DNA from: Candidatus Avispirillum sp.
GTDB lineage: Bacteria; Bacillota; Clostridia; Oscillospirales; CAG-272
Assembly (NCBI GenBank): GCA_045545335.1
Contig: JAZQAS010000123.1
Span: forward strand, 1 to 50,135
Length of the DNA: 50,135 nt
Reading direction: 5' to 3'
The position numbers and the translations under genes were made by a program. The notes beneath the pieces were generated by a model. That model searched no databases. It was not told the origin of the DNA and saw nothing but the letters and a program-made list of their open reading frames with translations. This document shows, in pieces, positions 8,105 to 35,328 of the stretch; the first letter of the stretch is position 1, and each line of letters begins with the position of its first letter.

Positions 8105-8179
8105 GGCCCGTTGGTCAAGAGGCTAAGACACCGCCCTTTCACGGCAGTAACAGGGGTTCGATTCCCCTACGGGTCACCA
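8105..8179 (+). tRNA. tRNA-Glu (TTC)
   Basis: GGCCCGTTGGTCAAG...CCGCC-CT-TTC-AC-GGCAG...GTTCGATTCCCCTACGGGTCACCA. Confidence 0.95.
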
Positions 8180-8218
8180 AAACAAAAGGACACCTTCGGG
8201 TGTCCTTTTTGTTTTGAT
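8180..8218 (+). terminator. Terminator of tRNA operon
   Basis: AAACAAAAGGACACC-TTCG-GGTGTCCTTTTTGTTTT. Confidence 0.85.
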
Positions 8219-8385
8219 ACCCGTATTTAACGGGGAATCGAAAGGGCGTGTCTATGTCGGTACGACAGACAAAAACTCTCCGGTGGAGAGTTTTTAGCCC
8301 GTTGTGCTGATCTTTCGAAAAAATCATGTATCACGTCCGACCGTGAGCGCCGAAACGAGTTTCGGCGAAACCTTCAAATTTGAGT

Positions 8386-8422
8386 ATTCCCCTACGGGTC
8401 ACCAAAACAAAAGGACACCTTT
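8386..8422 (+). repeat. Direct repeat of tRNA-Glu 3' end plus left half of terminator; attL
   Basis: ATTCCCCTACGGGTCACCAAAACAAAAGGACACCTT is identical to 8161-8196; the right half of the hairpin is found at 21634-21656. Confidence 0.9.
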
Positions 8423-8481
8423 GGGGTCTTCACTTAAAGCAGTTTTGTGAGCGACGTCCTCAAGCGGTGTCCAAAAGACAG

Positions 8482-8526
8482 AAAGACCACACAATTGACT
8501 ATGATGTCGGCTGTGTGGTCTTTTTC
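8482..8526. terminator. Hairpin terminator at left end of island
   Basis: AAAGACCACACA...TGTGTGGTCTTTTT. Confidence 0.6.
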
Positions 8527-8537
8527 TGTTTGTAGGC

Positions 8538-8819
8538 TTACTCTTCAAAATCCAATCCCGTGAGCGTTTCGAGCATTAATCTTCCGCCGAGCCGGAATCC
8601 GTATGCGAATATCTCACGCTCGATAATGCCGTACATTTCATTGACACAATCATCGTATTTTGCCAAGGTTTCTTTCTGCTCTTCGGTGAGCGTTACGGAA
8701 AGGTTGTCACGGTTCTTACCCATAAGGTTCAGGAGGTTTTTGATTTCCCGATTGCCTTCGGTACTTTGTTCCTGGGGATTGATGTTTCCGTACCAAAACT
8801 CCTCAAGCAATGTCCTCAT
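8538..8819 (-). CDS. DUF6809-like small protein
   Basis: MRTLLEEFWYGNINPQEQ...L..TLTEEQKE.L.KY.DC..EM...IEREIFAYGFRLG; AGGAGG RBS before ATG 8819. Confidence 0.7.
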   Translation of the reverse strand: MRTLLEEFWYGNINPQEQSTEGNREIKNLLNLMGKNRDNLSVTLTEEQKETLAKYDDCVNEMYGIIEREIFAYGFRLGGRLMLETLTGLDFEE

Positions 8820-8934
8820 AATTCTCCTCCTTCCGCACATAACAAAACGACCGCATCTCCGAGATCATTCCCGGTGATACGGTCGTTTCTTTGTTTTTGG
8901 TTGTCTGTTTTGGCTTTGTTTTTATACGTGGCAT
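8803..8934 (-). CDS. Putative 43-aa leader/small protein overlapping the DUF6809 start
   Basis: AGGAGGTG RBS then MPRIKTKPKQTTKNKETTVSPGMISEMRSFCYVRKEENYEDIA*; contains a long hairpin at 8845-8889. Confidence 0.4.
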   Translation of the reverse strand: MPRIKTKPKQTTKNKETTVSPGMISEMRSFCYVRKEENYEDIA

Positions 8935-8990
8935 AATGTTGCACCTCCTTGTAGCACAACACTATACCGCCATACCTCCGAAAAGTCCAG

Positions 8991-9548
8991 TCATTTTGTT
9001 ACATCAAAAAAATATTCATTATTGATAGGCTTTGCATCGATTTCGTAGTTCTTTTTGCTCAATAGCGATTTGCGTCCGATAATATTCTTTTGAATGAGGA
9101 TTCCATCTTCGTTTTCAAGCTCACACTCGTAATAACAAAAGCCAAATATTTCAAGTATTATATTTGCACCAAGTCTGTTATGCCGAACATGCAAGAAAGC
9201 AAGAACAAAATAAAACAGTAAAAATAAAATCACGCCATACCAAACGGTAAAATCAAACGCAAACAGTGGCAGAACATATGTAAGAACATACTCTGCTGTG
9301 ATCAACTTTTCTTCCTTTATACTTTTCAACATGAACGGCTGCGCGCCTGACTTGTTTCCTTTCCTAAAAGATACAGCTACAACAATAGCAGAAACTATCA
9401 TAACAATAGCCATAATAGCAATGCTGATCATTTCAGTATAGATGTTTGGATTGCCATCAAATATATTCTTTCCATCAATGAATCCAATGGATAACCATAG
9501 CGGAGTCAGTGACAAATAAAACAAACTAAATGATTTTATTGCGGACAT
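8991..9548 (-). CDS. kwaA: Kiwa anti-phage membrane protein KwaA-like
   Basis: About 4 TM helices; YVLTYVLPLFAFDF...HVRHN...NIILEIFGFCYY pattern; adjacent to DUF4868-like gene. Confidence 0.7.
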   Translation of the reverse strand: MSAIKSFSLFYLSLTPLWLSIGFIDGKNIFDGNPNIYTEMISIAIMAIVMIVSAIVVAVSFRKGNKSGAQPFMLKSIKEEKLITAEYVLTYVLPLFAFDFTVWYGVILFLLFYFVLAFLHVRHNRLGANIILEIFGFCYYECELENEDGILIQKNIIGRKSLLSKKNYEIDAKPINNEYFFDVTK

Positions 9549-9563
9549 AGGGTTTCCTCCGTA

Positions 9564-10496
9564 TTATTTCCATTGTCTCGCTCCGTCAACTTCGACCGCA
9601 TCTTTATCAAATGGATCAAGCATACCTTTGTTGCATAACAGTTTAACTATTTTTTCACTTGCTCCATCAACCGACGTATCGAATTTTCCGGTTTCAGCAT
9701 CTAATGGAATCGAGAACTTTTTGGCGATAGAATTACGTGTGTTTTTATTTTTAAGAGCAGTCAATCTTTTTTCGTTAAAGGCTACAAATTTTCTTGGATT
9801 GTGTCCGGATTCAGCAACGCCTTTGAAGATTTCGGTGTCTGTAACAATAGCACTTTGTTCTATCTGTTCAACTTTATCATGACATACCTTTTTATACGAG
9901 CGTGCCATATTAAATAAATTCTCACCAGCAAGGGAAAGGAAGTAAACAGACTTGTCCAATATCAAAACATCCATTGTTGGTCTTAACGAAAGAACCTTGT
10001 CAGAAATTTCGTAAAACTTCCCGTGGTTGTGAGCAAACTTGTTTTTGAGTGTTGTGACAGGATTCTGCATAGAGATGAGTTTTACCGGGACTTCATTTTC
10101 ATCCAGTGTAAGTATACCTTTCAGCAAGTATGCGGAATTATAAGAAAAAGGGTCGCTTTCAGTATCAGGCTTAGCAATAGCTTCAAGGAGCGCATTGAAT
10201 TCGTTAGCTATCAATTCGCTATCAGCTTGTAACTTATACACCGTTAACGAGTTGGCTGTGCCATCATATTCGCGTACATCTTGATATAAGGATATTGCCT
10301 TTTTCTTTCCGTGAAGATAAATTCCCGAAATTTCTTTCAGCAGTTCTGGCAATTTACCTGAGGGTGATAGTTCGATTTGACGGCTTGAATATCCTATGCC
10401 GTCTTTTTTTGTTGAAACAATATTAAGTAGTTGTAATGACCACTGTGTACAGGTCTCAATGTTTTGAAAAACTTCCGTAATGATTGCTATTGACAT
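9564..10496 (-). CDS. kwaB: Kiwa KwaB-like (DUF4868) protein
   Basis: 310 aa; VLSLRPTMDVLILDKSVYFL..GENLFN pattern recalled from DUF4868; paired with KwaA-like gene. Confidence 0.7.
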   Translation of the reverse strand: MSIAIITEVFQNIETCTQWSLQLLNIVSTKKDGIGYSSRQIELSPSGKLPELLKEISGIYLHGKKKAISLYQDVREYDGTANSLTVYKLQADSELIANEFNALLEAIAKPDTESDPFSYNSAYLLKGILTLDENEVPVKLISMQNPVTTLKNKFAHNHGKFYEISDKVLSLRPTMDVLILDKSVYFLSLAGENLFNMARSYKKVCHDKVEQIEQSAIVTDTEIFKGVAESGHNPRKFVAFNEKRLTALKNKNTRNSIAKKFSIPLDAETGKFDTSVDGASEKIVKLLCNKGMLDPFDKDAVEVDGARQWK

Positions 10497-10500
10497 TCTT

Positions 10501-11445
10501 TCACCAACCTAATAAGTTTGATATATTTTCTGCAATTGTTTTTATAACAGGTACACACACCGAATTACCAATCTGCTTATAGGCATCATCGATGGTGATG
10601 GTATTCGGAAAATAGAACTCCTTTGGAAATCCCTGAAAGTCAAGGCACTCGCGAAGGGTTAGTTTACGAATACCGAAGTTATCCCACACCACAGGAACTC
10701 TGTTTGGGTATGTTCCCATATTGGCTGTTAGCGTGGGACACATCATATTCTTTGTCCATCTGACTTCCCTGTCGGTAATGCGATAGATGGCATTGCGGTC
10801 ACGCATACGCTTTGCAAGATAATCATACATTTCCGAGCCGTTATAGTAGTAAATGTTATGTTGTTTCTCACTTCTATGGATTATATCCGCAGAATGAAGT
10901 GTGAGCTTGGTAGGCTTGGGGTGCTGATAAATATGGTCTGCGATATCATCTCTTACGGCAATGATGTATATACGTTTCCGTATTTGAGGTAGATTACCAT
11001 ATTCATTTGCCGCCATCACCCGATAGTAGACCGAATAACCGAACTGCGCCAACGAATTGAATATGACAAGAAAAGTTTTTCCATTATCATGCTCCATTAG
11101 GTTCGGTACATTTTCAAGAAATACCACCTTGGGCCTTTTGGCATCAATAATGCGGGTGATCTCAAAGAAAAGGTTGCCTCTCTTATCATCAAAGCCTTTT
11201 TGACGCCCAGCTATAGAAAATGGCTGACACGGAAAACCTGCGGTAAGCACATCGAAATCGGGAATATCACTCGTATGCACATCTCTTATATCCGATTCTA
11301 TGAGATAGTCATTTCCAAAATTGTGACGATATGTTTTGCAAGCGGCGGCATCATATTCGTTTGCCCATACAATATCAAATCCTGCTTGTTTAAAGCCCAA
11401 ACAAATGCCACCAATGCCTGCAAATAAACTGATAGCTTTTTTCAT
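10501..11445 (-). CDS. DNA (cytosine-5)-methyltransferase, M.Bsp6I-like scaffold
   Basis: SLFAGIGG, GFPCQPFS, ENV, QIRKRIY, CPTLTANMGT, YKQIGNSV. Confidence 0.93.
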   Translation of the reverse strand: MKKAISLFAGIGGICLGFKQAGFDIVWANEYDAAACKTYRHNFGNDYLIESDIRDVHTSDIPDFDVLTAGFPCQPFSIAGRQKGFDDKRGNLFFEITRIIDAKRPKVVFLENVPNLMEHDNGKTFLVIFNSLAQFGYSVYYRVMAANEYGNLPQIRKRIYIIAVRDDIADHIYQHPKPTKLTLHSADIIHRSEKQHNIYYYNGSEMYDYLAKRMRDRNAIYRITDREVRWTKNMMCPTLTANMGTYPNRVPVVWDNFGIRKLTLRECLDFQGFPKEFYFPNTITIDDAYKQIGNSVCVPVIKTIAENISNLLGW

Positions 11446-11446
11446 A

Positions 11447-13006
11447 TTACAAGTCGGTAATCAAAACTTGGCGATCGAGTGAAAACAAGTCCTTGATTTG
11501 TGCGTGAGTATACGGTTCGGTCTGTTGCCTCTCTACCATTTGAATAACATTGGATACTGCAACGGCACTACCGTGTACACCAGTTTCATTGATGATGCGC
11601 ATCAGCTGTGCGTTGATGTTGCTACCAAAACCACCTGCGATGTACGAGAAAAAGGCAAGGCGATTAGAGGAAGAACAATAGTTACTAAGACCTTCGATAT
11701 AGTTGTGAACCATACGATTGTGATGGTCATTGCTGATGGTATATTTGCTGTAAGCTTTGTTATCGATAATTCCACAGTATCCATCGCTATCGGAAAGAAG
11801 CAACACATCAGGTGTCAGACCTATGGGGCCAACGTGGCGCGCATCAAAACCGAACACCTCTTGGAAAAGCCGAACGGTAGCTTTTTCAAATTCTGTGGCT
11901 TCATCTCTGCCTTTGAAAGCCATCTCAAAGTATTCGGTCATAAACGAACCGATAGCGCCACGGGGATAGAGCCGCAAAAGGGATTCTTCGACAAATTTCG
12001 CATCAAGACCCGTCTGTTCGGTAATTTTGTCGACAAGATCGGGTGTAATACGAGTGATTGGTGTTTTCAGAGATTCACCTACGAACGCCTGTTTCACCTT
12101 TTGCTCGTTAATGATTTTTGCGGTGATCGTCTTGGTAGCGGTTAGATTACGAGTATCCTTATTGTGTTTGGGGTCAATGCCGTATTTACGCTGAAAATAC
12201 TCATGTTGTTCTGGTCTGTCAATAAACGGGGGAGTTGTTGCTAAAATAGCGCGTACTTCTTCTATTTTTTCAGGAATGATACGAAGCAACCTATCTTCAT
12301 CGCTTCGCTTGGCAAGTTGGGTATATTCAATCCAGTTGATGAAGGTATTTGCGGTGTCGGTTAAATGGCTATACGGATGATCGGGATTTACTGTACCGGT
12401 CTTGGGGGCGTATTTTGTAAAGAAATCAGCATCCAAGGATGCGTTGCCATTATTTCTGAAAGCGTGCAGTTTTTCTATAACGGAGCGGTAACAAGTATCT
12501 GTTTCGTTCTCTGCATTCGTAATAATAACTTTGGCGATTTCTTCTTCCGAAAGATATCCCACCTCGTTGTCCATCAACAAACGAAGCAGAAATCGGAAAG
12601 GACGAATCTTGAAACGGCGCGAAACATCAACACCACGGCTCGTAGAGAACGATGACGGGAATTGATATTTTAGCACTTGATTTTTCAACACGGTTACAGG
12701 AGAATCGCCGTTCATAATTGCTTCTCCCGCAAGTGTTAGTTTGAGCTGTTTTGTAGATTCCTGTGTAAAAATCAAGCCAAGACTTGCAACCCATGCTTGG
12801 TATGTACGAGCGCCGCCACCCGTTTGGTCACGGCGTTCGCCTTTGCGCTTGATGTTAGATTCTTCTAACGCCTCTTCAAGTGTTAAGTGCGTATCTCTTT
12901 GCCCTTGCCATTCTTGATTTAGAGATATTTCGGCAAAGGTTGCCAACACTTCGGGTATGGAATTTAATTTTCTTTTCGGTCGTGTGACCCACCAAAAGTT
13001 AATCAT
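11447..13006 (-). CDS. Type IIS-like restriction endonuclease with C-terminal FokI-like PD-(D/E)xK domain (BbvI-like by context)
   Basis: PDVLLL...GIIDNKAYSKY.I...HNRMV.NYI resembles the FokI cleavage domain; sits between two C5 MTases. Confidence 0.8.
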   Translation of the reverse strand: MINFWWVTRPKRKLNSIPEVLATFAEISLNQEWQGQRDTHLTLEEALEESNIKRKGERRDQTGGGARTYQAWVASLGLIFTQESTKQLKLTLAGEAIMNGDSPVTVLKNQVLKYQFPSSFSTSRGVDVSRRFKIRPFRFLLRLLMDNEVGYLSEEEIAKVIITNAENETDTCYRSVIEKLHAFRNNGNASLDADFFTKYAPKTGTVNPDHPYSHLTDTANTFINWIEYTQLAKRSDEDRLLRIIPEKIEEVRAILATTPPFIDRPEQHEYFQRKYGIDPKHNKDTRNLTATKTITAKIINEQKVKQAFVGESLKTPITRITPDLVDKITEQTGLDAKFVEESLLRLYPRGAIGSFMTEYFEMAFKGRDEATEFEKATVRLFQEVFGFDARHVGPIGLTPDVLLLSDSDGYCGIIDNKAYSKYTISNDHHNRMVHNYIEGLSNYCSSSNRLAFFSYIAGGFGSNINAQLMRIINETGVHGSAVAVSNVIQMVERQQTEPYTHAQIKDLFSLDRQVLITDL

Positions 13007-14069
13007 AATCCACCTCGTCCTTCAATGAGGATTCCATTGACTCATATTCAATGCCTGCGAATGTTTTCAAAATAGCTTCAAAGATAATTTTTGCACCCTG
13101 GCACGGAACGGCCATACCGATCTGCTTTCTTACGGATTCCTTTGAACCCTCAAATACATAATCATCGGGGAATGTCTGCAATCTTGCACGCTCGCGATTG
13201 GTGAGAGCGCGAGGCTCTTCCCAGTGATAGATATGTGTTCCACCACCACCGGAACCCGTTACCGTATAGGCAGGCTTGGTGGGGTCAAGTCTTTTATAAA
13301 TTTGACTAATCTTTGCTCCACGAACATTCAGTTTTAGCTCGTCTGGCAGATCTGCATTAAAAGCATTTTGACCGGGGAGAATATGCATCAAACGCTCGAC
13401 TACCTTTGCGGATTGCTTGGTAAGTTCATTGTTTGGTGCGTTAGCAGGGATGGGAGGATTCTCGATAGCATTTCTGCAGGTTACATCCATATCTGCATAA
13501 GGAGCATAACTCGGGATTTTGAACTCATATGGCAGATCTTTACGAATGCCAACAATGATTACTCTGTGACGAGCTTGTGGGACACCGTATTTTTCAAAGC
13601 AGTAGAGATTGGGGTATACACGATATCCGGCATCACGCATATCGGCAAGGATTTTTTCAAATGCGTTTCCCTCATTAGCACTACGCAAACCGCCGACATT
13701 CTCTGCCAAAAACCACTGCGGCTGATGTGTTCTTAAAATCTGGACACCGTAAGAGTACAAGGGGCCGAACTGACCATTGAATCCCTTTTGCTCTCCCACA
13801 ACGGAAAAATCGTTGCAAGGGAAACCGAAAGCGAGAGCGTCGATATGAGGGAGGTTGTCCAAGTCAAGTTTGCGAACATCACCCCAAATTACGCTATTGG
13901 GGTCTTGAGGACAAATATTCCTTCTATATGTATTACAGGTGTCGCTGTCATAGTCGTTTGCCCAGGCATGCACAATTTTATAATTATCTAAACCAATGTC
14001 AGCGTTGGTAGCTCCCCAAGCCAATCCGCCGGGGCCACAGAACAGCTCGCCTAATTCAAAAATAGCCAT
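12999..14069 (-). CDS. DNA (cytosine-5)-methyltransferase, M.BbvI-like
   Basis: GELFCGPGGLA, FGFPCNDFS, AENVGGL, SQIYKRL..AYTVTGSGGGGTH.YHWEEPRALTNRERARLQTFPD, as recalled for M.BbvI. Confidence 0.92.
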   Translation of the reverse strand: MAIFELGELFCGPGGLAWGATNADIGLDNYKIVHAWANDYDSDTCNTYRRNICPQDPNSVIWGDVRKLDLDNLPHIDALAFGFPCNDFSVVGEQKGFNGQFGPLYSYGVQILRTHQPQWFLAENVGGLRSANEGNAFEKILADMRDAGYRVYPNLYCFEKYGVPQARHRVIIVGIRKDLPYEFKIPSYAPYADMDVTCRNAIENPPIPANAPNNELTKQSAKVVERLMHILPGQNAFNADLPDELKLNVRGAKISQIYKRLDPTKPAYTVTGSGGGGTHIYHWEEPRALTNRERARLQTFPDDYVFEGSKESVRKQIGMAVPCQGAKIIFEAILKTFAGIEYESMESSLKDEVDYD

Positions 14070-14081
14070 AATTTTTTCTCC

Positions 14082-14291
14082 TTAAATTTCATCGCCGTTA
14101 TATAAAACGAACTTTCTAACAAACGATGCACCTACAGCATCTGCAATTACATTCAATTCTGCTATAGTAAAGCTTTCTCTTTTCATTTTAGCACTAAGAC
14201 TTTGCGGAGACATACCAATACGTCGAGCCAATTCAGCCATACTAATATTAGAACGTACACACAAAACTTTTATCTGTTCGGAAATACTCAT
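14082..14291 (-). CDS. Small XRE/Cro-like HTH regulator (controller-like) heading the defence operon
   Basis: 69 aa, ISMAELARRIGMSPQSLSAKMKR HTH. Confidence 0.85.
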   Translation of the reverse strand: MSISEQIKVLCVRSNISMAELARRIGMSPQSLSAKMKRESFTIAELNVIADAVGASFVRKFVLYNGDEI

Positions 14292-14319
14292 AGAATCCCC
14301 CTATAATAATGTTGTATTT

Positions 14320-14348
14320 ATTATAAACGTTTTTATTTAGCTTGTCAA
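14320..14348 (-). promoter_or_regulatory. SigA promoter of HTH-RM-Kiwa operon
   Basis: Minus-strand TTGACA-N17-TATAAT. Confidence 0.75.
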
Positions 14349-14414
14349 TATATACGATTAGCATATTGTAGCCTTCTCACATTTTTTGTGGGATGGTTTA
14401 TTTTTTTAGAAAAA

Positions 14415-15055
14415 CACCCCTACAAAACATAGTCCTTTTCTCCGTAGATACGAAAAGGATATTTTTTGTAAATAGGGGCCCCAAAACGCCTTTGAAATCT
14501 CCGTATAGTGAAAGACTGAATTATTTTGCGAGACAGGGGCCCCAAAAGGCTACTTTTTTCTGCGTATAGCGAAGAGGATAAATTTTTTCAAAAACTTTTG
14601 AAAAATACCCCCCCAATTAGCCCTTCAATTCTCCGTATAACGGGAGGAATAAAAATTTTTAAAGTTTTTTTCGGAAAGTACCCCCCCAGAACGCTATGTT
14701 TTTCTGCGTATAGTGAGAAACGCCTTTTTGAAAAAGTTTTGCAAAACACCCGAACAAAACCATATGTAAATGTCCGTATAGTGAGGAACTCATTTTTTTA
14801 GAAAGTTTTGAAAAACCGCACTACATTTCCTCGGTGGTGAAGTGAAAGGAAAAAACATTGCGAAACTTCCGCCAAAACGATACCCACGTGGCCAGTGGTA
14901 AGTGAGGTGAAAATTTTTTCAAAAAAGTTTCACAGAATTTTTCCCAAACGGCATCCTGATGTCCGTTGGAGATTAGAGGGAGAAATTTTTTCAAAGAATT
15001 TTTCAAAATTTTCGCCAAAACGCAATTCAAATGTGCAGTAGTTAAGTGAAAGGAG
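14415..15055 (+). repeat. Array of 10 degenerate ~60-75 bp units with fixed CAAAAC-N14-CGT(A)/CAGT geometry (putative alternative-sigma promoter array)
   Basis: Motif pairs 20 nt apart at 14423/14443, 14482/14502, 14543/14563, 14614/14634, 14687/14707, 14755/14775, ~14812/14832, 14873/14893, 14944/14964, 15016/15036, separated by A/T tracts. Confidence 0.8.
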
Positions 15056-15064
15056 CAAATAAAT

Positions 15065-17380
15065 ATGAAAGTTCAAAAGATACCGCAGACTCTGAAAGAC
15101 CTCGGAGAGTTCTGCTGTTGGAAGCATGAGGTCAAGGACGGCAGAAAAACAAAAGTACCATATAACCCTGTAACCGGGTACGGCGCAAGAACAAATGACC
15201 CGTCCACATTCGTCCCCTTCGATACCGCCGTTAACGCATCCGGTTATGACGGCATCGGCATCCGTGTCAGCGGACAGTTCGTAGGCATCGACCTTGACCA
15301 CTGTATGGAGGATGGCAATATCGTATCTTGGGCAAAGGAGATCACAGACCGCTTTGCTGATACCTACATAGAGGTAAGTCCATCGGGAGAGGGCATCCGC
15401 ATCTTCTGCTTGCTGCCTGATAACCTCAATTACAATACCGAAACCTACTACATCAAAAAAGCTGGCATTGAGGTTTACATACCCGGTTACACCAACCGAT
15501 TCCTCACCGTTACCGGGAACGCATTGACCCAGGCTGATGTGACCGAAACGGCAGAGGCACTCACGTGGTTGCTCAACACATATATGCGTCGACCTACTCC
15601 AACCACTCCCGCCGCCGTTGTATGCGGTAAAAGCTATCTCTCCGATGACAGCATTGTCACAAAGGCATCTACTGCCGTGAACGGAGAGAAGTTCGTAAAG
15701 CTGTGGAACGGAGATATATCGGATTACGGCTCACGCAGCGAGGCAGATGCCGCCCTGGTATCCATCCTTGCATTTTGGTGCAGTGGAGATACCGAACAGA
15801 TAGACAGGCTGTTCCGCACTTCGGAACTGATGCGTGAAAAGTGGAACGAGTATCGTGGTGCCGATACTTACGGAAATATAACGATCGCAAAGGTGGTATC
15901 AAAAACGACCGACTTTTACAAACCTATCATCAAACCTTCCGCTGCCGAAGATTTCGGCGTGGATCGGCTGAAGGAACTTGACCCTATGGACTCCGCCAAA
16001 TACCCCTGGAACGATATCGGTGCAGGACATATCTTCGCAGACTTCTTTCAAGACAGACTCCGCTATGTGCCAGAACGCAAGATGTGGTTTTACTACGAAG
16101 ACGGCATTTGGAACAAAGACACCGGCAACCTCCGTGCAATGAAATATTGTATGGAACTTGCCAACCTTATGTACTCCTTTGCCCTTGAAATCAAGGATGA
16201 GGATAAACGTAAGTCATATATGAAATATGCCGCCAAGTGGCAAAACCACTCCAACCGAGTCAACATCCTCAAGGATGCCCAGGTGCATCACCCCATCCAC
16301 TACGGAGACTTCGATGCCGACATTTATGCCTTCAATTGCAAAAACGGCACGCTGCATATCGACACCGGGGAATTTACCGAACACCGTAGCACCGACCTGC
16401 TCACCAAGATTAGTCCTGTCACCTATGACCCCACGGCTCACTCCGAGCGTTTCAGCACCTACATCGATGAGATTATGAGCGGTGACACGGACCGAGCCAA
16501 GTTCCTTCAGAAGATACTCGGTTACGGTCTTACCGGGGATACCCGCCACGAGTGTATGACCATCCTCTACGGTGCAACCACCCGTAACGGCAAAGGCACA
16601 CTCTGTGAAAGTGTACTGAAGGTGCTTGGCGAATACGGCTGCACCTCCCGTGCAGAAACCATTGCTATGAAGAACTACACCAACGGTTCACAACCGAGCG
16701 AGGATGTGGCTCGGCTGGCAGGTGTCCGTTTCGTAAATATCTCCGAGCCGACCAAGGGTATGGTGCTTGACGCTGCCAAGATAAAAGCTATGACGGGTAA
16801 CGACACCTTGAACGCTCGTTACCTTCACGAAAACAGCTTTGACTTCCAGCCGCAGTTTAAGATCTACGTTAACACCAACTATCTGCCGGTAATCAACGAT
16901 ATGACCCTCTTCACAAGTGACCGCATCATCATTATCCCGTTTGACAGGCATTTTGATGAGCAGACCCGTGACACATCCCTCAAGCAGAAGTTTGCCGAAC
17001 CGGATGTGCAAAGCGCCATCCTCAACTGGCTGTTGGCGGGGTATCGTCTGTTACGCAAAGAGGGGCTGCGCCTACCCAAATCGGTAAGGGATGCTACCGA
17101 ACGCTATCAGCACGACAGTGACAAGATGGTGCTGTTCTTTGAGGACCACCTGGTAGCGGACGATACCGCCGAGGAACTGACCTCCGTGGTGTATGCCCGC
17201 TACAAAGGTTGGTGTCAGGAGAACGGATGCTATGCGGAGGGGATGAAGAACTTCAAGCAAGGTTTGGAGACCTTCGCACCTGTCGTCCGGAAAAGACCGA
17301 AGCACGGCGGCGAGAAAACCACACTGCTCATCGGCTACCGACTCATCTCGGAATTCGATGTGCCGCCGCTGACAGCTTAA
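15065..17380 (+). CDS. Primase-polymerase (NrS-1-like) fused to D5/P4-type SF3 helicase
   Basis: GIDLDHC, YIEVSPSGEGIRIF, IEVY..RFLTVTG (prim-pol); SEADAAL..LAFW..QIDRLFR.S.LMR.KW; Walker A GATTRNGKGT, ISE, KAMTGNDTLNARYL. Confidence 0.9.
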   Translation: MKVQKIPQTLKDLGEFCCWKHEVKDGRKTKVPYNPVTGYGARTNDPSTFVPFDTAVNASGYDGIGIRVSGQFVGIDLDHCMEDGNIVSWAKEITDRFADTYIEVSPSGEGIRIFCLLPDNLNYNTETYYIKKAGIEVYIPGYTNRFLTVTGNALTQADVTETAEALTWLLNTYMRRPTPTTPAAVVCGKSYLSDDSIVTKASTAVNGEKFVKLWNGDISDYGSRSEADAALVSILAFWCSGDTEQIDRLFRTSELMREKWNEYRGADTYGNITIAKVVSKTTDFYKPIIKPSAAEDFGVDRLKELDPMDSAKYPWNDIGAGHIFADFFQDRLRYVPERKMWFYYEDGIWNKDTGNLRAMKYCMELANLMYSFALEIKDEDKRKSYMKYAAKWQNHSNRVNILKDAQVHHPIHYGDFDADIYAFNCKNGTLHIDTGEFTEHRSTDLLTKISPVTYDPTAHSERFSTYIDEIMSGDTDRAKFLQKILGYGLTGDTRHECMTILYGATTRNGKGTLCESVLKVLGEYGCTSRAETIAMKNYTNGSQPSEDVARLAGVRFVNISEPTKGMVLDAAKIKAMTGNDTLNARYLHENSFDFQPQFKIYVNTNYLPVINDMTLFTSDRIIIIPFDRHFDEQTRDTSLKQKFAEPDVQSAILNWLLAGYRLLRKEGLRLPKSVRDATERYQHDSDKMVLFFEDHLVADDTAEELTSVVYARYKGWCQENGCYAEGMKNFKQGLETFAPVVRKRPKHGGEKTTLLIGYRLISEFDVPPLTA

Positions 17381-17388
17381 ACCACAAG

Positions 17389-17478
17389 TTCGGGGCAGTG
17401 TGGCAGGTAATTTTATATTTTTCCTATAGTAATAAATATTTTGTAAAAAACCATAATTACTTGCCACATTGCCCCGAA
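17389..17478. other. Putative replication origin: 24-bp inverted repeat around AT-rich core
   Basis: TTCGGGGCAGTGTGGCAGGTAATT ... AATTACTTGCCACATTGCCCCGAA directly after the helicase stop codon. Confidence 0.6.
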
Positions 17479-17525
17479 AAGGAGAAAGGATGTGATGCCT
17501 ATGATTGCATACGGCTTGTGACCTA

Positions 17526-17621
17526 CCCCTGGGGGTGGTCAAATCTCTACGACCTTTTGCTCGTGCAACGGGCGTGGGGTCTCACGCAAAAATTCGCAAA
17601 ATCAAACGGGGTATTAACCCC
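17526..17621 (+). repeat. cos-like site 1
   Basis: AAATCTCT-N17-CAACGGGCGTGGGGT-N7-AAAAATTCGCA; inverted copy at 19519-19616. Confidence 0.6.
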
Positions 17622-17647
17622 AAAATCAAACAAAGGAGCGTACGTTT

Positions 17648-17905
17648 ATGAAATTCAAATTCAACTACAGCAAATCACCCAAGATGTCTGCAAAGGACAC
17701 CAAGAATTACTCCCACGGCAATTACGAATGCCGTCTCCTCTTGCAGACAATGAAAGGCCAGCCGGTGGCTATCTTCCAAAACACCGATAACGATGTGTGG
17801 AAGGTGCAGTACGGTTTCAGTTCTGTGTTCTTTGGAACATACGATGAGGCAATGCAGTTCTGCCGAGAGCGTTTCTGCGATACTTCCGGCAAGCGCCTCT
17901 CCTAA
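17648..17905 (+). CDS. Hypothetical protein (85 aa)
   Basis: AAAGGAG RBS; first gene of capsid module. Confidence 0.7.
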   Translation: MKFKFNYSKSPKMSAKDTKNYSHGNYECRLLLQTMKGQPVAIFQNTDNDVWKVQYGFSSVFFGTYDEAMQFCRERFCDTSGKRLS

Positions 17906-17920
17906 AGCGGAGGTGCGGCT

Positions 17921-18220
17921 ATGGAGTATATCAGATATCACCCTCTCATCGATTGCGATTCCGATGGGGTTGAAAAGGTGCCGATGTTTTTCAGCGCCGA
18001 TGAAGACTCCGTTCGTGAAACCCATTCGATGTACCTTGTGGAGTGTATACCCCACACATTTAGGCTTGTGGCCAAAGACTCCCATACACCAGAAGAGGCT
18101 CTTGCCTACAAAATCCACTGTCCCACCTGTGGACAGATTATGACACCCATCAGCGGTGTTTACGACAAAAACAAATTACAATTGCTCGTTTGCAAGAAAT
18201 GCAATCCGAGCCGCCATTAA
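17921..18220 (+). CDS. Small Zn-ribbon protein
   Basis: GGAGGTG RBS; CPTC...CKKC. Confidence 0.75.
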   Translation: MEYIRYHPLIDCDSDGVEKVPMFFSADEDSVRETHSMYLVECIPHTFRLVAKDSHTPEEALAYKIHCPTCGQIMTPISGVYDKNKLQLLVCKKCNPSRH

Positions 18221-18234
18221 AGGAGGAAATTATT

Positions 18235-18534
18235 ATGGCAGTTTATCCCTTACACGTAGAGGCACAGAGCCTCGTACCCCAGAATTCTTTTTACAGTGAG
18301 GAGCACGCATCCCGTATGTGTTCCTGGTATCTCACCGATCACCCAGTGAAAGACGAGCACGGCTGTATTCAGCAGACCTACCGCTTACACTCTTGTGAGC
18401 GCCGTAGCTTTGCGGATTTTATGCAGTACGATGTGGAATGTCCCAAGTGTCATCAGCGTCTCCGTCCCATCCAGAACGCCATCAACTCTCACGACCTGGC
18501 ACTTTACGCCTGCCCCAAGTGCTACAAGAAATAA
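18235..18534 (+). CDS. Small Zn-ribbon protein, likely paralog of the preceding gene
   Basis: AGGAGG RBS, ATG 18235; CPKC...CPKC with the same spacing as the neighbour. Confidence 0.75.
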   Translation: MAVYPLHVEAQSLVPQNSFYSEEHASRMCSWYLTDHPVKDEHGCIQQTYRLHSCERRSFADFMQYDVECPKCHQRLRPIQNAINSHDLALYACPKCYKK

Positions 18535-18546
18535 GGAGGACAACCT

Positions 18547-19485
18547 ATGAATACTTACAGCAAAATGCTCCCTCATCTCGAGAGTGGTAGCTACGACTAT
18601 GATTTTTGGAACGCTATGCGTGGCAAACAGCACAATGATGAGCGCCTTGCTCACGGCAAAGATACCTCGACCAGTGCTTTCCATATGTCCACGATGAGCA
18701 ACAACAAGTATATGACGGCATTGCAGAAAGAGAGCATCTTCCGTCAGATCGGCACTTGTATTACCACCTACAACAATGGACACCGCATCCTTGCAAAGGA
18801 CACTACCGACCTGGCCGAATGGGTACCGGAAGGTGAAACCATCCCTATGCAGGAAAGCATCAATGACTTCACCGAGAAATCTCTCGGCAGCCACAAGCTG
18901 ACCGTGTTCGTGAAAACCGATGAGGACTTCATCCACGATGTCACCTTCGACTTTGAAGCCTACCTCACCAACCGCTTGGCGAAGAACTTCGGACGAGCCG
19001 AGGAAAAGGCATTTATCACCGGAACGGGCAAAAATATGCCCACCGGTATCCTTGCTGATAAGGATGGTGCGGATATCGGGGTAACGGCAAAGACCATCAC
19101 CTACGATGATGTGGTCAAGCTGTACTTTTCGGTCAAGCCCGAATACCGCAAACACGGTGTTTGGATGATGAATGATGAGACCGCCCAGGTTCTTCGCACC
19201 TTGAAAGATGACGGCGGTAACTATATTTGGAATCACACCAACGATACCATTATGGGTAAGAGGGTCATCATCTCCGAGTTTATGCCTTCTGTTGGCAATG
19301 GCAACAAGCCTATCGCATTTGGCAACTTCTCCTACTATTGGGTGGTTAACCGCCGCCCCGTGAGTGTACGTTGCTTGAGAGAAATGTTCGTTCTCCAGGA
19401 CCAGGTAGGACACCTCGCTTTTGAGTTCTTGGACGGCAAGCTCGTCCGTACCGAGGCTATCAAGGTAATGCAGATAACCGCATAA
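18547..19485 (+). CDS. HK97-fold phage major capsid-like protein
   Basis: AEWVPEGE.IP, LGSHKL, AEEKAFITGTGKNMPTGIL, WMMN..T...LRTLKD..GNYIW, IAFGNFSYY, DGKLVRTEAIK. Confidence 0.88.
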   Translation: MNTYSKMLPHLESGSYDYDFWNAMRGKQHNDERLAHGKDTSTSAFHMSTMSNNKYMTALQKESIFRQIGTCITTYNNGHRILAKDTTDLAEWVPEGETIPMQESINDFTEKSLGSHKLTVFVKTDEDFIHDVTFDFEAYLTNRLAKNFGRAEEKAFITGTGKNMPTGILADKDGADIGVTAKTITYDDVVKLYFSVKPEYRKHGVWMMNDETAQVLRTLKDDGGNYIWNHTNDTIMGKRVIISEFMPSVGNGNKPIAFGNFSYYWVVNRRPVSVRCLREMFVLQDQVGHLAFEFLDGKLVRTEAIKVMQITA

Positions 19486-19518
19486 TTTTCGGGAGGCCCC
19501 TTGTGGGATAACTGCAAG

Positions 19519-19616
19519 GGGCTATTCCCCCTAAAACTTATGCGAATTTTTACACGCAACCCCACGCCCGTTGTACCATCAAAAAGCCACAGAGATTTAG
19601 ATCCCCCTACCGGGGG
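19519..19616 (-). repeat. cos-like site 2 (inverted)
   Basis: Reverse complement reads AAATCTCT-N17-CAACGGGCGTGGGGT-N7-AAAAATTCGCA. Confidence 0.6.
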
Positions 19617-19634
19617 CTTGGAAAGGAGACGGCT

Positions 19635-19805
19635 ATGGATGTGAACTCCATTACAGAAAACAAAGCAAACCGAGTCACAGAAATACAGATAGGAGAAACG
19701 CTTTTTACAGTAGTCTCCGTTGAAAGTGACCGCGCCAAAGAGCACCTTTACGATAAGGTGAAGCGTTTGATACTGGACAACGCTGACCGCTCGCAGGCAG
19801 CATAA
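19635..19805 (+). CDS. TnpW-like small protein (56 aa, not in ORF track)
   Basis: GAAAGGAG RBS; MDVNSITENKANRVTEIQIGETLFTVVSVESDRAKEHLYDKVKRLILDNADRSQAA*; typical position upstream of TnpX-like recombinase. Confidence 0.75.
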   Translation: MDVNSITENKANRVTEIQIGETLFTVVSVESDRAKEHLYDKVKRLILDNADRSQAA

Positions 19806-19848
19806 CAGTTCGCAAATTATTATCATTTATATGTACAAATAACCTTGA

Positions 19849-21570
<1,722 letters not shown>

Positions 21571-21615
21571 CCGGATTTCTCCAAACTATGCCGATATTTT
21601 TCCAAGGAATAAAAT

Positions 21616-34924: not shown

Positions 34925-35178
34925 AAATAAAAAACGCCTCCGCTCCTGCCGAATGCAAGAGACGAAAGCTAACTTCCGCGGTACCACTCTTATTGACATC
35001 AGAAGATGTCCGCTCATGGGGTACTTACATACCCTGTCCCAAGATAACGGGGGCAACCGGTCAAGCCTACTGAATTCAGCCGACAGCTCAAGGGTGAGTA
35101 GCTTCCGGGTCGGTAATGCCTCGCACCAAACGGCATCTCTCTGTAAAGGACGAAATGAAGCTTTATCCCTATCATTGC
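34925..35178 (-). promoter_or_regulatory. T-box riboswitch, probable Leu (CUC) specifier
   Basis: Stem I with AGAGA and GGTG boxes, specifier loop UA-CUC-A (35096-35098), AGUA box, CCGUUA, antiterminator AAGAGTGGTACCGCGG (34976-34991), terminator; promoter TTGACT-N17-TAAAAT at 35188-35216. Confidence 0.88.
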
Positions 35179-35328
35179 TTTTCGTGTATTTTATCACAGT
35201 GAAGTGGAAAAGTCAATGGTTTTTTTATAAAAAAAGTAAAAAGAATATTTCTTTTCTTATGTACAATGGTGAAAAAATATGGTAAAATGAAGTATAAATA
35301 AATTATATTGAAAGGTCCGGAGAAAACA

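Follow-up and report, generated by a model that had tools for sequence, protein, structure and literature searches.

Ten tandem, diverse promoter-like units before the primase gene of a Clostridia satellite-like island resemble promoters of phages that encode small sigma-like proteins

We analysed a 50,135-nucleotide (nt) stretch of contig JAZQAS010000123.1 from Candidatus Avispirillum sp. (assembly GCA_045545335.1), here called the window in its full length. The host assembly, from a spore-forming member of the Clostridia, comprises 2.2 Mb and is 79.6% complete. The window carries an island of ~8.2–21.6 kb that adjoins tRNA-Met and tRNA-Glu and contains, in order, minus-strand defence cargo, a helix-turn-helix (HTH) gene, an array of tandem units, a primase gene, three small open reading frames (ORFs), an HK97-type capsid gene and a large serine recombinase gene (Table 1). 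As is typical of phage satellites, it is small and integrated and carries a recombinase and a replication gene of its own while lacking a full set of virion genes; between 14082 and 21570 there was no sign of terminase, portal or tail genes. The array occupies positions 14401–15058 of the plus strand, between the HTH and primase genes, and consists of ten co-oriented units of 57–73 bp each. A first-pass annotation, made from the letters of the sequence, had proposed that these units are promoters resembling those of several helper phages, and it is this proposal that we examine here.

Direct reading and measurement bore out the basic description in that annotation of ten tandem units with an A/T tract, a fixed 20-nt geometry and purine-rich tails. 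Every unit begins with the A/T tract and ends in the purine-rich tail, and in 10/10 units the C of CAAAAC, or of a variant (CAAAAG, CAATTA, CAGAAC, AAAACC or CCAAAC), lies precisely 20 nt upstream of a four-base anchor. This anchor is CGTA in units 1–6 (14443, 14502, 14563, 14634, 14707 and 14775), CGGT in unit 7 (14832), CAGT in units 8 and 10 (14893 and 15036) and CGTT in unit 9 (14964), with successive anchor-to-anchor spacings of 59, 61, 71, 73, 68, 57, 61, 71 and 72 nt. Two finer points were also correct: unit 7 is the poorest fit, and the last tail alone is used as a ribosome-binding site (RBS), since a start codon follows only this one (GAAAGGAG at 15049–15056, ATG at 15065). Tandem Repeats Finder reported three short A/T repeats inside the array and left the array itself unreported, as would be expected if the units have geometry and short motifs in common but not their sequence as a whole. 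We distinguish type-B units (1–6), with a C-rich block, AAAAC, N14 and CGTATAG, from type-A units (7–10), with the motif ..CAAAC-N14-CC[AG]GTGG.TAGTG...

Within the host genome these signals are confined to the array. The type-B core CGTATAGTGA occurs three times in the assembly, each time within the array. A hidden Markov model (HMM) of the type-A family, built iteratively from units upstream of related satellite primases, matched units 7–10 only (E 1.3e-8 to 3.7e-4) when run over the whole genome, the next match having an E value of 3.3. A second HMM, built from 13 distinct phage type-B sites alone, recovered units 2, 6, 5, 3 and 1 with E values of 1.8e-11 to 1e-3; unit 4 was weak (E 0.26), and elsewhere in the genome nothing scored better than E 0.38. 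Because the CGTATAGTGA and profile-scan matches are restricted in this way, the array is beyond what chance would produce. In the window, neither the recombinase gene nor the capsid gene was seen to have a unit upstream.

The surroundings of the array are those expected of promoters. An intrinsic-terminator-like hairpin with a T-run lies directly upstream of unit 1, all units are on the plus strand and unit 10 abuts the primase RBS, which is the placement found for the phage sites described below. A weak plus-strand sigma-70-like promoter that faces the array overlaps the promoter of the HTH gene, and no sigma-70 consensus promoter was found on the plus strand inside the array. Since the terminator precedes unit 1 and the array has no such promoter of its own, transcription of the primase gene should begin within the array. 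We also considered whether the units fold as hairpins in RNA or single-stranded DNA, so that the array would serve as a structured leader sequence or provide processing sites. The pyrimidine-rich spacer can pair with the purine-rich tail, unit 1 contains a perfect 8-bp stem (z −3.1), and the mean folding energy in the family was −8.4 kcal compared with −5.9 kcal for shuffled sequences. However, units with their own halves (−8.36 kcal) hardly differed from units with swapped halves (−8.03 kcal; Wilcoxon p 0.11), so that there is no unit-specific compensation, mutual information gave no antiparallel ladder, and the z-scores of the window units (−3.1 to +1.5) were no better than those of shuffles save for unit 1. 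On the half-swap, mutual information and shuffle comparisons we rejected this structured-RNA reading, which is exceedingly improbable. An Rfam search found no family in the array, its matches in the window being a T-box and three tRNAs only.

Homologues of the primase were found at 85 loci, 60 in genomes and 25 in viromes. Most of the 47 loci where the match is full-length, virome contigs of 6–8 kb among them, keep the primase together with the small ORFs and the capsid and recombinase genes, and the island is shown by this comparison to be a member of a conserved family of small, apparently satellite-like elements. The presence of IMG/VR contigs among the carriers of the module is suggestive only with regard to helper dependence and packaging by a helper, and the small virome contigs, in which no terminal repeats were found, are uninformative on packaged ends. 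Across the 85 loci the family HMM gave 193 matches, 193/193 on the primase strand; 189/193 lie no more than 1300 nt upstream of the primase start codon and the other four just downstream of the primase gene. Arrays contain between zero and nine family-model matches (median 4), the window array having ten units of which four are type A, and the type-A consensus can be written AAAATTTC..TTTTCGnyCAAAC-N14-CC[AG]GTGGGTAGTG-purines. Several motif subtypes are mixed in one stack, and units of one subtype recur within arrays. The type-B units 1–6 are shared with the 96%-identical locus L001, while loci L009, L013 and L032 have one or few units of another type. A hairpin and T-run precede the first detected unit in 26/44 related arrays by a simple rule and in 5/5 arrays examined by eye; the former count is probably too low, since detection sometimes misses the true first unit. 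The HTH gene, in turn, was conserved in none of the 47 related loci listed (tblastn), and the HTH protein was rejected as a reader or operator-binder of the units on the grounds that its gene varies while the units stay conserved.

Two unclassified repeated modules were observed in related loci. One, GAGGGGGTTGAC(T/A)TTTTCGGCTTGTACC, lies ~184 to 91 nt before the primase in L006; the other, GGGGGTTCGATTC..TTTTCGCTTATAGGCAGAGG, lies ~511 to 436 nt before it in L062 and resembles a tRNA T-arm.

Sites of the same kind occur in phages, where they are dispersed. Scanning IMG/VR with the pattern CAAAC-N13-15-CCAGTGGGTAGTG returned 38 stretches, 4 of which were satellite arrays, the others having one or two dispersed sites, many of them on contigs of 36–88 kb. 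Five proviruses (47–88 kb, CheckV 89–100% complete) carry two or three sites each, all on a single strand per record. Among the distinct sites with this pattern, a hairpin and T-run lie upstream in 13/14, and an RBS and start codon follow 27–58 nt after the anchor in 13/14. For the subtype CAAAAC-N13-15-CCAGTGG[N]AAGTG, found in 62 stretches, a terminator-like signal upstream (27/27) and an RBS with start codon downstream (27/27) were present, and with the pattern CAAAC-N13-15-CCGGTGGNAAGTG 11 of 22 stretches fitted the model, one more being a known satellite array. The CCAGTGGTAAGTG box of unit 8 is also present in the provirus promoters L289 and L312. The genes downstream of phage sites are the first of their operons. 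One type, of 67–76 aa, stands at the head of a recombination/DNA polymerase block; others encode DUF7768, with the phage primase next in line, an HTH/Zn-ribbon protein of 133–156 aa (phrog_2308) and an antirepressor of the Bro-N/KilAC type. A blastn search of the array against GenBank phages gave two chance-level matches only (E 0.7).

These placements bear on whether the units could instead be origin iterons or priming sites bound by the island prim-pol/helicase. Repeats adjoining an initiator gene are typical of origins, and among the 85 primase-related loci the units are found solely beside full-length prim-pol primases: the family HMM matched in 44/47 such loci and in 0/38 loci whose primase match is the helicase part or less. 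Like iterons, the units are tandem direct repeats beside a replication initiator gene. However, iterons are near-identical and bound by the initiator, whereas these units are diverse and directional and are placed as promoters in phages. In phages whose primases have a different N-terminal domain, the motif stands before unrelated operons (recombinase, HTH/Zn-ribbon, antirepressor). Moreover, the subtypes follow the neighbouring sigma-like gene and not the primase. That the units are origin repeats is therefore very improbable, and the earlier remark that geometry is kept while sequence varies, unlike in iterons, stands.

In all tabulated loci the sigma-like gene in question, which encodes a protein of 156–175 aa, ends 47–58 nt upstream of the first site (family A; representative L127:3519-4040, with homologues in L128, L196, L283 and others). 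Its profile scores for sigma-70 region 4 fall short of the cut-offs, at 21–23 bits for Sigma70_r4_2 (cut-off 25.7) and 42.8 bits for the TIGR02937 sigma70-ECF (extracytoplasmic function) model (cut-off 42.9). It matches phrog_13787 and, at 1e-10 to 1e-12, phrog_351, an RNA polymerase sigma factor family; the few of its 223 homologues that have a source name include proteins named as sigma-70 family or ECF-type sigma factors (NCBI, JGI). In an AlphaFold model (predicted local distance difference test, pLDDT, 71.9), a beta-hairpin and a long helix are accompanied by a Cys cluster, which is poorly modelled, and by a C-terminal domain of four helices; the family has an invariant YYR..W helix motif and five invariant cysteines. 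The top Foldseek matches were all sigma factors, with isolated sigma-4 domains aligning at TM scores of 0.71–0.81 and a root-mean-square deviation (rmsd) of 1.5–2.7 Å. Taken with the sub-cut-off profile scores, these structural matches indicate that the protein has a region 4 of the sigma-70 type.

Within family A, the predicted recognition helix and the promoter block appear to vary together. The helix SRNTYTYRRDK goes with the block TTTCGGCCAAAC, NNQSAVNYRKQK with CTCTGTTCAAAC, RQSTLNYRKNK with TTCGTTCAAAC and KRTTFLSRLKK with CTTCGTCAAAAC and CCAGTGGGAAGTG, and the L196 clade goes with GGGGACCAAAC and CCGGTGGCAAGTG. This joint variation of the region-4 helix and the −35/−10 subtype is a pattern among related sequences and not a statistical proof. 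Five genomes that hold a related satellite provided a further comparison: 4/5 contain a homologue of the family-A factor (E ≤1e-5), which is full-length in genomes G013 and G015. In G015, two resident sigma-like genes are followed by ..ATTTTCGTTCAAACCGC..CTCCATTGGGTAGTG; the satellite in the same genome (L029) carries the identical 17-nt −35 block and the rare CCATTGGG box in its unit 2. Subtypes of co-resident phage and satellite matched in 1/2 testable pairs.

Type-B sites are associated with a second factor. A scan for AAAAC-N14-CGTATAGTGA gave 64 stretches, ~17 of them with the full context of terminator, T-run, C-rich block, motif, RBS and gene. The C-rich blocks, which lie outside the search pattern, match those of the window: AGGGGCCCC matches units 2 and 3, ACACCCC(A/G)(T/A)C units 1 and 6 (17/18 and 16/18) and ATACCCCCTC resembles units 4 and 5. 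The −35 block of unit 1 agrees at 17/18 bases with the provirus promoter L153, and unit 2 is identical to the L188 site at 35/46 positions, including the entire AGGGGCCCCAAAAC block. In L161, L173 and L132 a protein of 127–132 aa that ends in a sigma region 4 stops 13 nt before the type-B site; it scores 21–31 bits with TIGR02937, below the cut-off, and was found in 3/5 records searched, which are 3/3 of those at least 90% complete. In phages the start codon lies ~8–14 nt after the purine tail of a type-B site, and the messages therefore either have a very short leader with the tail as RBS or are nearly leaderless. The site in L132 is followed by a prim-pol primase like that of the window.

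On this 9-kb virome contig (L132:1330-4161) the type-B factor gene, the site and a 783-aa prim-pol primase gene follow one another. The element, with its own factor beside the primase, may be an intermediate between a phage and a factor-less satellite.

The layout of units 1–6 invites comparison with promoters of host sigma factors, and it is conceivable that the units are read by a host SigI- or ECF-type sigma factor through which the island senses host stress. SigI promoters of Clostridium thermocellum and Bacillus have the consensus C-----AAA 13-14N CGWA or ACCCCC--AA 15N CGAA, and their variable part is proposed to set which paralogue reads the site (PMC4711584). Units 1–6 (AAAAC-N14-CGTA, with a variable C-rich 5' part) agree in geometry only with this layout of a C-rich block, AAA, 13–15 nt and CGWA as published there (PMC4711584), and the assembly contains nine ECF-like sigma genes. 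In contrast, units 7–10 have CGGT, CAGT, CGTT and CAGT in place of CGWA. Host SigI was rejected as the reader since the 79.6% complete assembly gave no RsgI_N match, and its best SigI match (TIGR02895) scored 44.5 bits against a cut-off of 185. The host genome has no unit-like site outside the array in its 2.2 Mb, even though a host regulon should have targets, and the motif subtypes follow phage-encoded factors. Reading by a host sigma factor is thus very improbable. Of the likeness to SigI promoters remarked on in the first-pass annotation, the layout of units 1–6 stands; in a host with neither RsgI nor a true SigI, the likely reader is a phage protein.

Taking these comparisons together, we consider it probable, at roughly 0.7, that the array is a stack of ten non-sigma-A promoters of a type used by temperate Clostridia phages that encode a small sigma-70-like reader. 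The comparative evidence supports the earlier idea of multi-helper promoters. Large proviruses do carry isolated unit-like sites, oriented with the genes and lying after terminators, which agrees with the proposed resemblance to helper-phage promoters; and where the first-pass annotation had suggested looking for such sites just downstream of region-4 genes and upstream of replication operons, the first site follows the region-4 gene at the short distance given above, and a phage site precedes the DUF7768 and primase operon. That annotation was also right that the island has no sigma factor gene: neither Sigma70_r2 nor Sigma70_r4_2 matched anywhere within 8200–21600. Four factor queries found a homologue in 0/85 primase loci, and tblastn of four phage sigma-like proteins against the host assembly gave a best E value of 0.023. 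In a quiet cell the primase operon would be silent, as the terminator would stop transcription from upstream and the array has no sigma-A promoter. A helper phage, once induced or infecting, would make its own sigma-like factor, which would direct host RNA polymerase to the unit matching its specificity, and the satellite replication and capsid genes would then be transcribed. As the units are of different subtypes, several helper lineages could trigger the island; the window array has at least three type-B −35 variants and four type-A variants, for two factor families (at least seven subtypes).

A number of observations weigh against this assignment. Unit 4 is the weakest type-B unit, its best phage site (L187) being identical at 31/46 positions. 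Type-B units are recovered by a model made from phage sites, whereas units 7–10 match the satellite-family model and appear to be tied to phage promoters only through it; a phage-only type-A HMM run over the host genome gave no match at E values up to 1. The array subtype TTCCATTNGG lacks a genuine phage counterpart, as 0/67 stretches obtained from viral contigs with the pattern AAAC-N13-16-TTCCATTNGGNAGTG fitted the unit model. In G013 the promoter subtype of the resident phage has no close match in the array of the co-resident satellite, and the host assembly, at its 79.6% completeness, has no candidate helper and hence offers no pairing for the island of the window. The spacing of the units, 57–73 bp, is approximately one polymerase footprint, and simultaneous occupancy of all units is therefore impossible. 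Transcript data came from one study with two metatranscriptome runs (X1 and X2, shares 0.09 and 0.08), whose Logan contigs are 88–95% like the window; these cover parts of the primase and array and carry no start, end or strand information, DNA carry-over is possible, and nothing was drawn from them. Finally, Pfam Sigma70_r2 (PF04542) matched the factor in 0/5 proviruses. Its N-terminal half, consisting of the beta-hairpin, one long helix with YYR..W and the Cys cluster, is modelled at low confidence, and when the whole chain is compared with sigma factors by Foldseek the matches are weak (E no better than 1e-3, rmsd about 11 Å). Hence the factor may be an activator instead of a true sigma.

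The last point can be developed into an alternative, which we regard as rather unlikely, in which the phage protein acts as an activator of class-II type: it would take the place of sigma-A region 4 in contacting the −35 position, sigma-A itself would read the −10 element, and the units would be sigma-A promoters that depend on an activator instead of alternative-sigma promoters. By eye, the type-B sequence CGTATAGT holds TATAGT, one mismatch from TATAAT, 17 nt after CCAAAA, and the combination of a clear region 4 with no Pfam region 2, the size of the type-B proteins (just 127–132 aa) and a weak NCBIfam match to a ‘positive control sigma-like factor’ would all suit an activator. On the other hand, the type-A boxes (CCAGTGGGTAGTG) lack a good sigma-A −10, and the −10 box shifts with the factor clade (CCAGTGGGTAGTG, CCAGTGGGAAGTG, CCGGTGGCAAGTG), which is unexpected if sigma-A reads it. 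Foldseek does align the whole model, if poorly, with whole sigma factors, and in an alignment read by eye the YYRDIW helix recalls region 2.3–2.4.

Under the preferred reading, in which the units are promoters for helper-encoded sigma-like factors, the array on a replicating satellite could possibly also soak up the helper factor. A stronger version makes the array mainly a decoy, its promoter copies titrating the helper factor and damping helper expression, with the driving of the primase secondary. Up to 9–10 sites per element are beyond the needs of expression, a multicopy array could outnumber the two or three such sites of a phage, and same-subtype units recur within arrays. Nevertheless, all 193 matches point towards the primase, and the RBS of that gene lies at a set distance from the last unit or forms part of it, features that a pure decoy would not need, and L009, L013 and L032 manage with their one or few units of another type. 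We consider a predominantly decoy function improbable.

The closest functional precedent for a promoter stack of this kind is P4, whose late genes answer to P2 Ogr; P4 delta is homologous to P2 ogr and both promote late-gene expression of P2 and P4 (PMC8628076). By analogy, both satellites would bear helper-type promoters that are switched on by a transcription factor made by the helper. P4, however, has single promoters and its own activator, Delta, whereas the window island has a tandem diversified stack and no factor gene; and the P4 case concerns late and capsid-size genes and a zinc-finger activator acting with sigma-70, in contrast to a replication gene and a sigma-like factor here. In the SaPI and PICI families (Staphylococcus aureus pathogenicity islands and phage-inducible chromosomal islands), helper proteins remove the Stl repressor and the satellite is silent until the helper is active. 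Silence until that moment is common in principle to both systems, but theirs is protein–protein derepression, while positive control through helper-type promoters is proposed here; the divergent HTH gene may add a further repressor layer in the island. Phage-encoded sigma factors that redirect host polymerase include SPO1 gp28 and gp33/34 and T4 gp55/gp33. The present proteins resemble these as phage-made members of the sigma family with their own promoter consensus that would time phage operons, and differ in being very small (127–175 aa), in having a Cys cluster and no recognizable region 2, and in belonging to temperate Clostridia phages.

A satellite must detect its helper, and the known ways are removal of a repressor (SaPI/PICI) and a single shared activator (P4). 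If the present interpretation is right, a diversified stack of helper-type promoters would be a simple and evolvable means of widening helper range, and helper–satellite pairs would be predictable from sequence by comparing array units with prophage promoter subtype and factor clade. More tentatively, and at a little less than even odds, widespread minimal satellites of Clostridia may use an evolving ‘promoter panel’ in which each promoter is tuned to the sigma-like factor of one helper lineage, acting as a broad helper detector and factor sponge; behind it would stand very small, Cys-cluster sigma-like phage proteins with a promoter code readable by genome comparison. The comparison also exposes a large unnamed family of small sigma-like regulators in gut Clostridia phages together with their probable promoters, and these sets should be useful for annotating and engineering poorly studied phages, possibly as orthogonal pairs. 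The tandem, diversified and factor-less arrangement before a replication gene is new as far as the literature searched shows, in which the arrays, factors and promoters are undescribed; supplements of satellite surveys may hold catalogues that include this family.

Table 1. Coordinates of the array units and neighbouring features of the island in the window
Feature	Position	Strand	Motif or description	Evidence
HTH gene	14082..14291	-	69 aa, Cro/CI type, divergent from array	Pfam HTH_26 1.1e-7; phrog_4583 transcriptional repressor 6.6e-11
Sigma-70 promoter of HTH gene	14320..14348	-	TTGACA-17-TATAAT, consensus	12/12 matches
Weak sigma-70-like promoter facing array	14342..14369	+	TTGTCA-16-TATTGT	9/12; consensus match only
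Intrinsic-terminator-like element	14375..14408	+	Hairpin (14375-14393) and T-run directly 5' of unit 1	
Unit 1, type B	14401..14461	+	AAAACACCCCTACAAAAC-N14-CGTAGATA	Phage-only HMM E 1e-3
Unit 2, type B	14462..14523	+	AGGGGCCCCAAAAC-N14-CGTATAGTGA	Phage-only HMM E 1.8e-11
Unit 3, type B	14524..14582	+	AGGGGCCCCAAAAG-N14-CGTATAGCGA	Phage-only HMM E 5.5e-4; 35/46 with L188 site
Unit 4, type B variant	14583..14655	+	TACCCCCCCAATTA-N14-CGTATAACG	Phage-only HMM E 0.26
Unit 5, type B	14656..14724	+	TACCCCCCCAGAAC-N14-CGTATAGTGA	Phage-only HMM E 4.3e-7; 33/46 with L132 site
Unit 6, type B	14725..14792	+	AAAACACCCGAACAAAAC-N14-CGTATAGTGA	Phage-only HMM E 3.9e-8; -35 block 16/18 with L173 site
Unit 7, type A	14793..14857	+	TTTTGAAAAAC..CCTCGGTGGTGAAGTG	Satellite-family HMM E 3.7e-4 (whole-genome scan)
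Unit 8, type A	14858..14913	+	CCGCCAAAAC..GGCCAGTGGTAAGTGAGG	Satellite-family HMM E 7.3e-6
Unit 9, type A	14914..14985	+	TTTTCCCAAAC..GTCCGTTGGAGATTAG	Satellite-family HMM E 6.7e-8
Unit 10, type A	14986..15058	+	TTCGCCAAAAC..GTGCAGTAGTTAAGTG; primase RBS in tail	Satellite-family HMM E 1.3e-8
Primase-helicase gene	15065..17380	+	Prim-pol/D5 type, 771 aa	Pfam NrS-1 pol HBD 3.8e-28, D5_N 3.9e-25, Pox_D5 7.9e-12
Three small conserved ORFs	17648..18534	+	85 aa (17648-17905), 99 aa (17921-18220), 99 aa (18235-18534)	
Major capsid protein gene	18547..19485	+	HK97 type	Pfam Phage_capsid 8.7e-72; phrog_10
Large serine recombinase gene	19885..21570	+	Conserved in related loci, at right end of module	Resolvase, Recombinase, Zn_ribbon_recom, DUF4368

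Downstream of the array, the primase also matches phrog_1829 (DNA primase) at 2.8e-156. The three small ORFs are conserved alongside the primase in many related loci and matched no Pfam or PHROG family except for a weak Zn-ribbon match; the two 99-aa proteins have paired CxxC motifs. Small zinc-finger proteins are helper-directed activators in P4/P2, and by analogy the CxxC proteins could act on the helper. A hairpin with 34-nt arms (82% complementary) and a 22-nt A/T-rich loop lies directly downstream of the primase stop codon, at 17389–17478; it may act as a terminator or be some regulatory or origin-like element. An 81-nt inverted repeat (17541–17621 and 19518–19598; 73% complementary, 1896 nt between the arms) brackets the region from the 85-aa ORF through the capsid gene; it could delimit a capsid module that inverts or is exchanged, or represent a pair of regulatory sites.

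The minus-strand cargo (8538–14069) comprises DUF6809, an unknown protein of 185 aa (phrog_7312) and a KwaB-like protein, for which no KwaA was visible; it also includes a FokI-like nuclease with a C5 cytosine methylase on either side. Related loci have different cargo at this position. At the left edge of the island, a 40-nt direct repeat (8161–8200 and 8386–8425; 98% identical, 225 nt apart) begins in the 3' end of the tRNA-Glu gene and has the look of an attachment site duplicated when some element integrated at the tRNA. Unrelated to the island, the T-box leader (117.5 bits) lies at 34955–35184 on the minus strand, upstream of a long minus-strand ORF.

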